From a phage: a DNA stretch of 33,627 nucleotides. A model generated the notes under the pieces. The model was not told the origin of the DNA. It did no database searches and was given only the letters and a program-made list of their open reading frames with translations. Location of the stretch: the NCBI GenBank assembly GCA_012551655.1, contig GCA_012551655.1_3034.1, one strand, 5' to 3'. Of this stretch, positions 6,767 to 12,252 are shown in pieces; within the stretch, counting starts at the first letter, position 1, and each line of letters begins with the position of its first letter. Made by a program: the position numbers and the translations under genes.

Positions 6767-6793
6767 GGGAGCCTTCGGGTTCCCTTTTTCTTT
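6767..6793 (+). terminator. Rho-independent terminator after gene 35
   Basis: GGGAGCC-TTCG-GGTTCCC stem-loop followed by TTTTTCTTT. Confidence 0.6.
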
Positions 6794-6800
6794 ATAAATA
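6793..6800 (+). promoter_or_regulatory. Late promoter for gene 36
   Basis: TATAAATA 24 nt upstream of the gene 36 ATG, directly after the terminator. Confidence 0.7.
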
Positions 6801-7488: not shown

Positions 7489-10400
7489 ATGGCTACTTTA
7501 AAACAAATACAATTTAAAAGAAGCAAAACTGCAGGAGCACGTCCTGCCGCTTCAGTATTAGCCGAAGGTGAATTGGCTATAAACTTAAAAGACCGTGTAC
7601 TTTTTACTAAAGATGACCAAGGAAATATTATTGATCTGGGTTTTGCTAAAGGCGGTAGTATTGACGGGAATGTTATTCATACAGGCAATTATAACCAAAC
7701 TGGCGATTATACTTTAAATGGCGTCTTCACTCAGACTGGTAATTTTAATTTAACTGGTATTGCTCGAGTAACTCGCGATATTATTGCCGCTGGGCAGATT
7801 ATGACTGAAGGCGGAGAACTTATTACAAAAAGTTCAGGTACAGCGCATGTTCGTTTTTTCGATAACAATAGTCGCGAACGCGGAATCATTTATGCCCCGG
7901 CTAATGATGGTTTAACTACACAAGTACTTAATATCAGGGTTCAAGACTACGCCGCTGGTAGCGAAAGCACTTATGCATTTTCAGGCAGTGGACTATTTAC
8001 TTCACCTGAAGTATCAGCATGGAAATCTATTTCGTCTCCACAAATTCTGACCAACAAAGTCATTACTAATAATAAATCTACGGGTGATTATGACATTTAT
8101 TCGATGGCAGACAATGTTCCACTGTCTGAAAGCACTACTGCTATTAATCATCTACGTGTCATGCGCAATGCAGTCGGTTCTGGTATTTTCCATGAAGTTA
8201 AAGATAATGATGGAATAACTTGGTATAGTGGAGATGGATTAGATGCTTATCTTTGGTCATTTACCTGGAGCGGCGGAATTAAATCAAGTCACTCAATTTC
8301 TATCGGTTTAACACCCGGTAATAAAGATTATTCAATATTAGGACCATCTAGCATTGCTTTAGGAGATAATGATACTGGATTTAAATGGCATCAAGACGGA
8401 TATTATTTCAGCGTTAATAATGGCACAAAAACGTTTTTATTTAGCCCTAGCGAAACAACTAGCCTAAGAAAATTTGTAGCTGGATATTCTACTAATGGAA
8501 CCGATTTAACTACTCCTCCAACTGAAAACTATGCTCTTGCTACTGTTGTGACATATCACGATAATAACGCGTTTGGAGATGGTCAGACTCTTTTGGGATA
8601 TTATCAAGGTGGTAATTATCATCATTATTTCCGCGGCAAGGGTACTACAAACATTAATACTCATGGCGGTTTGTTGGTTACTCCTGGTAATATTGACGTT
8701 ATTGGCGGTTCTGTAAATATAGATGGCCGTAATAATGCTTCTATACTGATGTTTAGAGGTAACACAACTGGTAGTAGCTCAGTTGATAATATGACAATTT
8801 CCGCGTGGGGTAATACTTTTACTAATCCTAGTGAAGGTACCCGTAAAAATGTCATGGAAATTTCTGATGCAACTAGCTGGATGAGCTATATTCAAAGACT
8901 TACTACTGGTGAAGTAGAAATGAACGTTAACGGTTCATTTGAATCATCTGGTGTTACTGCTGGAAATAGAGGAGTTCACACAACAGGCGAAATTTCATCT
9001 GGTGCAGTGAATGCTCTTCGTATTTGGAACGCAGATTATGGAGCCATTTTTAGACGTTCAGAAGGAAGTCTTCATATTATTCCAACTGCTTACGGTGAAG
9101 GTAAACACGGCGATATTGGTCCACTTCGCCCATTTAGTATGGCTTTAGATACTGGTAAAGTTACTATTCCAGATTTACAATCAAGTTACAATACGTTCGC
9201 TGCTAACGGTTATATTAAATTTGTTGGTCATGGAGCGGGTGCCGGCGGTTATGACATTCAATATGCTCAAGCGGCTCCTATTTTCCAGGAAATTGATGAT
9301 GATGCTGTAAGCAAATATTATCCTATTGTTAAACAGAAGTTTTTAAATGGTAAAGCCGTTTGGTCTTTAGGTACTGAAATTAATTCGGGTACATTCGTTA
9401 TTCATCATCTGAAAGAAGATGGATCACAGGGCCATACATCAAGATTTAATGCTGATGGTACAGTTAATTTCCCTGATAATGTTCTGGTCGGTGGTGGTGA
9501 AGCTGCTATTGCTCGTAATGGTAATATTTTCTCGGATATTTGGAAAACGTTTACTTCTGCAGGCGACGTAACTAATATTCGCGATGCAATAGCTACTCGT
9601 GTTGCCAAAGAAGGTGATACGATGACCGGCACTCTTTGGATTAATAAAGATGCTGCTGGAATAGTTCTTAATCCTCCTTTGGCCAGTGATTCATCATTTA
9701 TTCGTTCCGATACGGCCGGGGTCAATAATTGGTATATTGGTAAAGGCGGTGCCGACAATGGTCTAGGTTTTTACAGTTATGTTACACAAGGCGGTGTATA
9801 TATAACAAATAACGGAGAAATATCACTTTCTCCTCAAGGCCAAGGAACATTTAATTTTAATAGAGACCGCCTCCATATAAACGGTACACAATGGACCGCA
9901 CACCAGGGAGGTGGTTGGGGAAATCAATGGAATCAAGAAGCACCGGTATTTGTAGATTTTGGTAATGTTGGTAATGATAGTTATTATCCTATTATTAAAG
10001 GAAAATCCGGTATTACTAATGAAGGATACATATCTGGTGTAGATTTTGGTATGCGACGCATTACTAATACATGGGCACAAGGTATTATTCGTGTAGGTAA
10101 TCAGGAAAACGGTTACGACCCACAAGCTGTATATGAATTCCATCATAACGGTACTTTTTATGCTCCAAGCTTACTTAAGAGCAGTAGAGTATCAGCTGGT
10201 GGTGGTGACCCTGCATGGGGCGGGCCGTGTATTGTACTTGGAGATAACGATACCGGTTTGCTTTGGGAAAACGATGGTATTTTCAACGCATATGCAAACG
10301 GCCAAGGTGTGTTTAGTTTTAGACCTGGTTTAGCTCAGACATTCGGTGATGTTAACTTCCACTGTAATGCAGGTATGTATGTTCGTGATAACATTGATGT

Positions 10401-10740
10401 TAACGACGTTTATATTCGTTCTGATATTCGTTGTAAGTCGGAAATTAAGCTTATTAAGAACGCTCAAGAGAAATCTAAACTATTGGGCGGTTATACTTAT
10501 CTGCTTAAAAACTCTGTTACAGACGAAGTTAAACCGTCCGCAGGTTTAATTGCTCAGGAAGTTCAAGAAGTATTACCTGAACTTGTTTCTGAAGATAAAG
10601 AGACCGGACTGCTTCGTTTGAACTATAACGGTATTATTGGTTTAAATACAGCTGCAATAAACGAGCATACAGATGAAATCAAGGAATTGAAATCTGAAAT
10701 TGCCGAATTGAAAGCATTAATTAAATCATTGATAAAATAA
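7489..10740 (+). CDS. 37: Long tail fiber distal subunit gp37 (1083 aa) with C-terminal intramolecular-chaperone-like domain
   Basis: Large ORF after 36, N-terminus [39 protein letters not shown] typical of gp37; C-terminal ~120 aa ([10 protein letters not shown]...[15 protein letters not shown]...coiled coil) resembles auto-cleaved fiber chaperone domains. Confidence 0.95.
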   Translation: [1083 protein letters not shown]

Positions 10741-10745
10741 TAAAA

Positions 10746-10759
10746 GGGCCTTCGGGCCC
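10746..10759 (+). other. GGGCC-UUCG-GGCCC RNA hairpin at the 37-38 junction (no U-tract)
   Basis: Perfect 5-bp GC stem with UUCG tetraloop 6 nt after the 37 stop, followed by SD ggagg and the 38 ATG. Confidence 0.5.
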
Positions 10760-10770
10760 TGGAGGTTTAT

Positions 10771-11550
10771 ATGGCAGTAGTAGGAATCCCTGGTTGGATT
10801 GGGACTTCAGCCGTTGCTGAAACGGGACAAAGATGGATGACGGCTGCTTCAAGGGAACTTCGTTTAGGAAACCCTTCATGGATGTCCCAATTCGCGGGCC
10901 GTTCAAGAGAAATAATTCACACACTTGGAGCAGACCATAACTTCAATGGTCAATGGTTCCGAGATAGATGTTTTGAGGCAGGTAGTGCACCTATAGTGTT
11001 TAATATCACCGGAAATTTGGTATCATATAGTAAAGATGTTCCATTATTCTTTATGTATGGCGATACGCCAAATGAATATGTTACTTTGAATATTCATGGC
11101 GGAGTTCATATGTGGGGACGAGGTGGTAACGGTACTGTAAACGGAAACCCAGGCACTAATGGTGGCGATGTAATCCAAAATGATATCGGCGGAAGACTTC
11201 GTATTTGGAACTATGGCGTTATTGCATCAGGCGGTGGCGGTGGTGGTGCAGTGTCATTACAGAATAGCTGGGCACCAAATGCTACAGCAGGTGGCGGTGG
11301 TGGTAGACCGTTTGGCATCGGCGGAGGCGGCGTTAATTGGCCGGGTGGTAATGCTAGTTATGACGCGCCCGGCGGTGCCGGTTACACTTCCCAATTCGGC
11401 GGAGGCAATGGCGGTGATGCTGGAGGTCGGGGTGGAGATGGATGGGGTAATCACTTATCTAGATCCGGCGGTGGTGCTCCAGGTAGAGCGGTATTCGGTT
11501 CTTCACCATCATGGGGTGCAACAGGCACGATCTACGGTTCCTGGATTTAA
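10771..11550 (+). CDS. 38: gp38 receptor-binding adhesin of the T2/T6 type (259 aa, glycine-rich motifs)
   Basis: N-terminus [23 protein letters not shown]... and C-terminal half with poly-glycine blocks ([43 protein letters not shown]) as in T2-type gp38; the T4-type gp38 is a 183-aa chaperone. Confidence 0.9.
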
Positions 11551-11569
11551 ATGGTAATACCTCTCAGCA

Positions 11570-11595: not shown

Positions 11596-12252
11596 ATGGC
11601 AGCACCTAGAATATCACTTTCGCCCTCTGATATTCTATTTGGTGTTCTAGATCGCTTGTTCAAAGATAACGCTACCGGGAAAGTTCTTGCTTCCCGGGTA
11701 GCTGTCGTAATTCTTTTGTTTATGATGGCGATTGTTTGGTATAGGGGAGATAGTTTCTTTGAGTACTATAAGCAATCAAAGTATGAAACATACAGTGAAA
11801 TTATTGAAAAGGAAAGAAATGCACGCTTTGAATCTGTCGCCCTGGAACAACTCCAGATAGTTCACATATCATCTGAGGCAGACTTTAGTGCGGTGTATTC
11901 TTTCCGCCCTAAAAACTTAAACTATTTTGTTGATATTATAGCATATGAAGGAAAATTACCTTCAACAATAAGTGAAAAATCACTTGGAGGATATCCTGTT
12001 GATAAAACTATGGATGAATATGCAGTTCATTTAAATGGACGTCATTATTATTCCAACTCAAAATTTGCTTTTTTACCAACTAAAAAGCCTACTCCCGAAA
12101 TAAACTACATGTACAGTTGTCCATATTTTAATTTGGATAATATCTATGCTGGAACGATAACCATGTACTGGTATAGAAATGATCATATAAGTAATGACCG
12201 CCTTGAATCAATATGTGCTCAGGCGGCCAGAATATTAGGAAGGGCTAAATAA
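11596..12252 (+). CDS. t: Holin T (218 aa)
   Basis: MAAPRISLSPSDILFGVLDRLFKDNATGK... with one N-terminal TMD and large periplasmic domain; size and sequence as recalled for T4 holin; follows 38. Confidence 0.9.
   Translation: MAAPRISLSPSDILFGVLDRLFKDNATGKVLASRVAVVILLFMMAIVWYRGDSFFEYYKQSKYETYSEIIEKERNARFESVALEQLQIVHISSEADFSAVYSFRPKNLNYFVDIIAYEGKLPSTISEKSLGGYPVDKTMDEYAVHLNGRHYYSNSKFAFLPTKKPTPEINYMYSCPYFNLDNIYAGTITMYWYRNDHISNDRLESICAQAARILGRAK

Follow-up and report, generated by a model that had tools for sequence, protein, structure and literature searches.

A T2/T6-type gp38 adhesin with a predicted OmpF specificity domain, encoded downstream of an S74-bearing tail fiber gene

The DNA analysed is a 33,627-nt stretch of a phage genome (contig GCA_012551655.1_3034.1), designated hereafter as the window. 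It features the gene order 37-38-t on the plus strand. Gene 37 (7489..10740), recognized by its Pfam matches to Peptidase_S74 and Gp34_trimer, encodes the 1083-aa distal subunit of the long tail fiber that gp38 is predicted to cap. Gene 38 (10771..11550, stop codon included) starts with ATG and has 259 codons, as defined from the ORF list and its translation; matches in Pfam and the PDB assign its product to the T2-type tail fiber tip adhesins. The downstream neighbor is the holin gene t (11596..12252, plus strand; Pfam Phage_holin_T, 7e-117), which belongs to a backbone similar to that of phage ECP52. The glycine content of gp38 is 35% in aa 116-259 and 11% in aa 1-115, and the G+C content rises to 55% in the glycine-rich stretch of the gene versus 36% (35.7%) for the window. 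The preliminary description of this locus had reported a 259-aa product with a glycine-rich C-terminal half; the ORF is exact and every glycine block quoted there is present in the translation. The reading frame is genuine, as the protein matches the Pfam family GP38 (4e-83) and is 100% identical to annotated phage proteins. An origin of the glycine blocks from a wrong frame was rejected on the same grounds and because the strand opposite to 10771..11550 is crowded with stop codons. A second ORF of 125 aa in the +2 frame (11180..11557) overlaps gene 38; it probably arises from the high G+C content of the glycine codons.

Gene 38 is inferred to be co-transcribed with genes 36 and 37. A TATAAATA late-promoter box ahead of gene 36 (6793..6800, plus strand) is, from its position, the likely start of a 36-37-38 transcript, and the search of the window returned no such box for gene 38 itself. 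The three TATAAATA sites of the window (1723, 6793 and 11570) precede genes 34, 36 and t, at 25-42 nt from the gene starts, a placement that matches T4-type late transcription units. Their number carries no weight since it is not above chance (3 versus 4.75 expected), and it is their positions that are suggestive of promoter function. The spacer between genes 37 and 38 is 30 nt long. It contains an AGGGCC-UUCG-GGCCCU hairpin (10745-10760) with a perfect 6-bp stem and a UUCG loop (-12.3 kcal/mol), followed by a GGAGG Shine-Dalgarno sequence (10761-10765) spaced by 5 nt from the ATG of gene 38; the whole element spans 10745..10765 on the plus strand. The hairpin was rejected as a significant structure (z=-1.17, 24 of 200 shuffled sequences folding equally well) and is not terminator-like because no T-run follows it. 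Hairpins of the C(UUCG)G kind are known from the intercistronic RNA of T4.

Three regions were delimited in gp38. The N-terminal attachment domain (aa 1-42, 10771..10896), which the preliminary description had correctly proposed to be conserved, corresponds to Pfam Gp38_N and carries Trp9, Trp22 and Trp37, the first two being almost invariant among 111 homologues. It is followed by a conserved core (aa 43-115, 10897..11115) defined by alignment, beta-rich in the AlphaFold2 model and 89-100% identical among gp38 proteins of the T6, OmpA and OmpF types. The C-terminal specificity domain (aa 116-259, 11116..11547) was defined from the segment alignment, from glycine columns that are invariant in the 111 homologues, and from the model. 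In the standard scheme, gp38 comprises five glycine-rich motifs (GRM) alternating with four hypervariable segments (HVS) (PMC3157838; PMC12032242). This modular layout, with a Trp-bearing N-domain, five GRMs separating four HVSs and a conserved C-terminus, is found in the window protein when aligned with gp38 of T2, T6, S16, AV119 and the OmpF group described below. The limits, set here from the alignment, are GRM1 aa 116-121 (GRGGNG), HVS1 aa 122-129, a conserved stretch aa 130-152, GRM2 aa 153-159, HVS2 aa 160-171, GRM3 aa 172-186, HVS3 aa 187-209, GRM4 aa 210-222, HVS4 aa 223-231, GRM5 aa 232-237 and a C-terminal strand region aa 238-259. The glycine blocks first described are all present and the non-glycine segments between them correspond to HVS1-4, but that parsing missed GRM1, and its third block (aa 201-226) took in, besides GRM4, the end of HVS3 (YTSQF, with Q208) and the start of HVS4 (DGWG).

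The assignment of gp38 to the adhesin family is supported by Pfam GP38 (PF05268; E=4e-83, 279 bits for a cut-off of 25, aa 47-259) and Gp38_N (PF21721; E=8e-21, 74.2 bits for a cut-off of 25, aa 1-42). Sequence searches of the PDB matched the receptor-binding domain of PP01 gp38 (9v85; 2.9e-73) and S16 gp38 as present in the gp37-gp38 tip complex (6f45_D; 2.1e-48), the latter match extending along the full length. An AlphaFold2 model computed with the 111 homologues in the alignment has a mean pLDDT of 86.9 and a pTM of 0.80. In the core, where beta strands are present, the pLDDT is mostly 79-97, with 72-73 at aa 43-50; confidence dips at HVS2 (mean pLDDT 65, aa 161-170). The preliminary description had suggested modeling of a polyglycine sandwich, and the predicted fold is indeed a polyglycine-II sandwich. 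When compared to the PDB with Foldseek, the model resembles only the two solved gp38 adhesins (9v85_C, TM 0.91 and rmsd 1.5 Å; 6f45_D, TM 0.80-0.83), the next match having E=3. Both are of the OmpC type; no gp38-OmpF complex and no structure of an OmpF-type gp38 was found by PDB sequence search, Foldseek or literature search. Sequence analysis and modeling show the family, the fold, the gene context and the identity of the allele, and no feature of the sequence speaks against an adhesin.

The gene context provides a second line of evidence. Gene 38 lies directly downstream of a gene 37 whose product has a Peptidase_S74 domain ('Chaperone of endosialidase') at aa 978-1033 (Pfam, E=9.7e-12). A DVYIR^SD sequence is found at aa 973-979 of gp37; cleavage at this motif was predicted in the fPS phages by analogy with DLNVS^SD of S16 (PMC7917993). 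The residues DVYIR (aa 973-977, 10405..10419, plus strand) would form the last strand before autocleavage at R977^S978 and the putative docking surface for gp38, while the C-terminal intramolecular chaperone (aa 978-1083, 106 aa; 10420..10737, plus strand) is predicted to be removed after trimerization. By their sequences genes 37 and 38 are both of the T2/S16 type, which supports the adhesin interpretation put forward earlier. Comparison across the panel revealed that the gp38 N-terminal type tracks the type of the gp37 tip. The proteins of PECP20, AlbertHofmann and AugustSocin are 100% identical to those of the window over gp38 aa 1-42 and 91-100% identical at the gp37 tip, while the corresponding values for ECP52 are 48% and 33%. 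This co-variation fits a physical docking of one protein on the other. By analogy with S16, whose structure assigns a role to Trp 'prongs' (as given in PMC7917993), gp38 aa 1-42 probably docks onto the gp37 tip.

These data converge on a model that we consider highly probable: gp38, as a monomeric adhesin, caps the long tail fiber at its distal tip in a T2/T6-like phage with a Tequatrovirus backbone and presents loops that bind OmpF. By analogy with related phages, gp37 is assumed to be cleaved, gp38 to be part of the virion and OmpF to be bound. According to this model the S74-type chaperone at the C-terminus of gp37 would assist its trimerization and would then excise itself after DVYIR (R977^S978). 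The Trp-bearing segment of gp38 (aa 1-42; Trp9/22/37) would dock at the exposed hydrophobic tip of gp37, and the C-terminal domain would build from its GRMs a lattice of polyglycine-II helices that presents the HVS1-4 loops at the far end of the fiber. These loops would most probably bind the porin OmpF in a reversible first contact that precedes binding of the short tail fibers to the LPS core. A dual role, in which gp38 is both the adhesin and a factor needed for assembly of the distal half-fiber, so that its loss would yield fiber-less particles, is rather unlikely. T6 gene 38 amber mutants with a truncated C-terminal domain produce virions of normal morphology that do not adsorb (PMC3157838), and the window gp37 brings its own intramolecular chaperone. 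This role supplements the tip adhesin function and does not replace it.

According to the preliminary description, the sequence does not reveal the receptor. That view is outdated, as identity to experimentally typed alleles predicts OmpF. Residues 100-259 of the window gp38, which include all four HVSs, were compared with those of phages of known receptor. RB51, whose receptor was identified as OmpF by RB-TnSeq (preprint 10.64898/2026.04.02.716166), has no difference over this segment. FL31 has one (I183L) and FL33 five, four of which lie in HVS3; both phages are OmpF-dependent, although the plating drop of FL31 on an ompF mutant is weak, only about one log (PMC12032242). Two differences (I183L and R220W) are found in AlbertHofmann/Bas47 and AugustSocin/Bas38, which were typed as OmpF phages (PMC8594841 and its supplementary table). 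Phage fPS-2, which uses OmpF plus LPS in Yersinia (PMC7917993), has I183L and an ambiguous residue at the switch codon discussed below. The gp38 of ChristianSchoenbein/Bas46, also typed as OmpF-dependent (PMC8594841 supplementary table), is 95.8% identical overall. HVS1, HVS2 and HVS4 are identical in all aligned members (RB51, Bas47, Bas38, FL31, FL33 and fPS-2), and HVS3 of the window is identical to that of RB51, Bas47, Bas38 and FL31. The window I183 (Leu in most of the others) and R220 (Trp in Bas38/Bas47) are both located in GRMs. RB51, FL31 and ECP52 combine another N-terminal attachment domain (48-52% identity over aa 1-42) with the same specificity domain. The OmpF group (RB51, Bas47, Bas38, Bas46, FL31, FL33, fPS-2 and fPS-90) carries this domain on both Tequatrovirus and Mosigvirus backbones. 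The HVSs of the window are just 0-50% identical to those of gp38 from T2 (FadL/OmpF), AV119 (OmpA), T6 (Tsx) and S16 (OmpC). The specificity domain thus points to OmpF as the very likely primary receptor, a prediction drawn from its identity to experimentally typed alleles.

This prediction has to be weighed against the possibility that gp38 is a tip adhesin whose functional receptor on the natural host is not OmpF or not OmpF alone; the candidates would be OmpW, a different porin, or the LPS core as an obligatory co-receptor to which gp38 itself binds. A Q206L exchange in HVS3 of RB51 (A617T) changes the receptor from OmpF to OmpW and the reverse change restores OmpF (preprint 10.64898/2026.04.02.716166), so one Gln to Leu substitution is sufficient to redirect this allele class. 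Since a single residue can alter specificity, an argument from strict identity carries no further than the typed panel, in which the RB51 typing and the Q206L switch rest on a preprint. In the alignment the equivalent of RB51 Q206 is codon 208 of the window, a CAA coding Gln within HVS3 (11392..11394, plus strand); the window keeps Gln, not Leu, at the OmpF/OmpW switch position. As for a co-receptor, fPS-2 and fPS-90 also require the LPS outer core (PMC7917993), Bas47 is waaC/waaG-dependent (PMC8594841), and FL31, FL33 and FL34 also lose about one log on a tolC mutant (PMC12032242). Nevertheless, the dependence of T-even phages on the LPS core was attributed to their short tail fibers (PMC8594841). 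The LPS-core and tolC effects seen in the relatives may be indirect, or due to the short tail fibers. Deep-rough and tolC mutants also carry less OmpF. Taken with the identity of the entire specificity domain to that of the OmpF-typed RB51 and with OmpF dependence in eight independently typed relatives from four studies, this leaves a receptor other than OmpF, or one additional to it, improbable. Variants of the host OmpF loops and shielding by O-antigen could still block infection by a phage using OmpF.

Two database records touch on the switch site. RB68 is reported to differ from RB51 by Q206L and to use OmpW (preprint 10.64898/2026.04.02.716166). Its public gene 38 (KM607004) is identical at every nucleotide to that of RB51 (FJ839693), with A617 and Gln206. 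Either different stocks are involved or the mutation arose after the deposited sequence was determined; the public RB68 record provides no check on the OmpW switch because its gp38 is identical to that of RB51. In fPS-2 (LR215722) the sole ambiguous base of gene 38 is nt 623, the middle of codon 208 (CNA), which is the switch nucleotide. It hints at a mixed population at the OmpF/OmpW switch site in that stock.

The exact protein is already known: PECP20 (OQ873415) and CAU_ECP01 (PQ572755) encode gp38 proteins 100% identical over the 259 residues. All 24 nucleotide differences between the window gene 38 and that of PECP20 are synonymous, and most of them lie 3' of gene nt 447. The dN/dS ratios are 0.03-0.15 in comparisons with PECP20, AlbertHofmann, AugustSocin and FL33, with dS values up to 0.41. 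The NG86 dN of 0.003 obtained against PECP20, despite the lack of amino acid changes, is a path artefact generated by a two-step synonymous change of a Ser codon (gene nt 730-731). This is evidence from sequence comparison that gene 38 is under strong purifying selection. The low dN/dS and the exclusively synonymous changes indicate that the 'hypervariable' loops of the OmpF allele are not drifting. They form a discrete conserved allele common to Tequatrovirus and Mosigvirus phages, in line with the idea that gp38 varies among a restricted number of alleles, each specific for a receptor (PMC3157838; preprint 10.64898/2026.04.02.716166).

The window backbone is Tequatrovirus-like. Its G+C content (35.7%) compares with the 35.4% and 37.7% listed in BASEL for Tequatrovirus and Mosigvirus genomes, respectively, and genes 36, t and asiA are 98-99% identical in DNA to ECP52 versus 62-78% to PECP20 (98% and 73% for gene t). 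A 60-nt mismatch profile showed that this affinity reverses, becoming PECP20-like, from about position 9684 inside gene 37 (codon ~732) to 11163-11217. The patch of about 1.5 kb has 3 mismatches to PECP20 in about 1250 nt and comprises the gp37 tip and chaperone as well as the gp38 attachment domain, core, GRM1 and HVS1. Its right-hand recombination junction (11163..11217, plus strand), placed by informative sites, lies within codons 131-149 of gene 38, in the conserved stretch that separates HVS1 from the GGGGGG block. The ratio of PECP20-like to ECP52-like informative sites is 260:3 on the left side of the junction and 9:214 on the right side (maximum chi-square 439). Further upstream, gene 37 is a finer mosaic of mixed affinities at 8200-9700. 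PECP20 is the closest source of the patch in hand; its flanks and gene layout resemble those of the Mosigvirus AlbertHofmann and its record carries no genus.

The specificity domain is the same in the two putative parents, so that the exchange did not alter the protein sequence of the receptor loops. The whole of these observations is probably best accounted for by gene 38 being a natural intragenic recombinant, in which a PECP20-like patch entered a Tequatrovirus backbone whose own gene 38 already had an identical OmpF specificity domain. The gp37 tip and the gp38 N-terminus would travel as a unit, and the receptor loops would constitute a separate allele, frozen by purifying selection, common to the two genera and one A to T change (position 11393) away from OmpW specificity. 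The mosaic is an instance of a known process, not of a new one: its junction offers a natural example of the module exchange proposed by Trojet et al. and reproduced by recent engineering work.

A search with tblastn identified 12 records with gp38 proteins at least 99% identical to that of the window and 86 records with at least 80% identity, with E. coli (some O157:H7), Shigella, Yersinia and Salmonella among the hosts of the phages. GenBank labels of the 99-100% identical proteins comprise 'receptor-recognizing protein', 'adhesin tip' and 'hypothetical protein', but also 'long tail fiber assembly chaperone', '(distal long tail fiber) assembly catalyst' and 'tail protein and peptidase'. The chaperone and catalyst labels, carried by many records, are T4-derived misannotations, wrong for the adhesin family and still propagating. 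A function of gp38 as a T4-type chaperone that aids gp37 folding and is absent from the virion, for which only the gene name, the place downstream of gene 37 and these inherited labels speak, can be dismissed with near certainty: the protein has no similarity to the 183-aa T4 gp38 (best blastp E=2.0 over 14 aa, not a meaningful alignment) and falls in the Pfam adhesin families, the window gp37 has an S74 intramolecular chaperone while T4 gp37 consists of Collar and Phage_fiber domains without S74, and the T4 record itself states that the T2-subfamily 'gp38' is unrelated and is an adhesin. T4 gp38 matched no Pfam family at E<=0.01, GP38 included, and Pfam is for that reason unusable as a positive test for the T4 family. 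The distinction drawn in the preliminary description between a T2/T6-type adhesin and the T4-type chaperone is thus borne out, and alignment with T2, T6 and S16 confirmed that their gp38 proteins are homologous to that of the window and belong to the same family.

Two of the homologues collected have unusual records. A 303-aa 'tail fiber domain-containing protein' (P0079) has both Peptidase_S74 and GP38 domains and may be the end of gene 37 fused to gene 38, or the product of a mis-called start. The other, a gp38 homologue attributed to Bacillus cereus (P0026), is probably due to contamination or a wrong label.

Both the gp38 adhesin family and the fold and modular logic of its members were already established, and the present work has little value for discovery; its practical value lies in annotation and prediction. 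It adds the OmpF prediction, the evidence for strong purifying selection and a recombination junction located within gene 38. Prediction of OmpF from allele identity can aid the choice or engineering of phages.

Comparison with known systems situates the window gp38 within its family. It shares with T4 gp38 only its name and its place between genes 37 and t, and the two sequences are unrelated. In T4, receptor binding is carried out by the gp37 tip itself. PECP20 and CAU_ECP01 have the closest gp38, and their gp37 is also of the 1083-aa type (1058 of the 1083 residues of the window gp37 identical to PECP20); the flanking t, asiA and gene 36 of PECP20 are the divergent ones described above. The gp38 of T2 (FadL/OmpF) and T6 (Tsx) share family and gene position with the window protein. 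Identity to T2 is 50.8% overall, 37% in the core and 25-50% in the HVSs; identity to T6 is 89% in the core (aa 43-115) and 0-38% in the HVSs. The designation T2/T6-type thus names the family and not the allele. S16 gp38 (6f45) is 45% identical over the full length (E=2.1e-48) and has the same three-part architecture, and S16 gp37 likewise combines an S74 chaperone with a cleavage motif (DLNVS^SD; DVYIR^SD in the window). S16 differs by its HVSs (0-30% identity), by a gp37 tip that is just 23% identical to that of the window before the cleavage site, and by its receptor, the Salmonella OmpC. The closest solved structure is PP01 gp38 (9v85; PMC12892980), 61-64% identical, which shares the polyglycine-II lattice and the protruding loops. 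The sequences of these loops are different, and PP01 gp38 binds OmpC of E. coli O157 (PMC12892980), whereas OmpF is the receptor predicted for the window phage.
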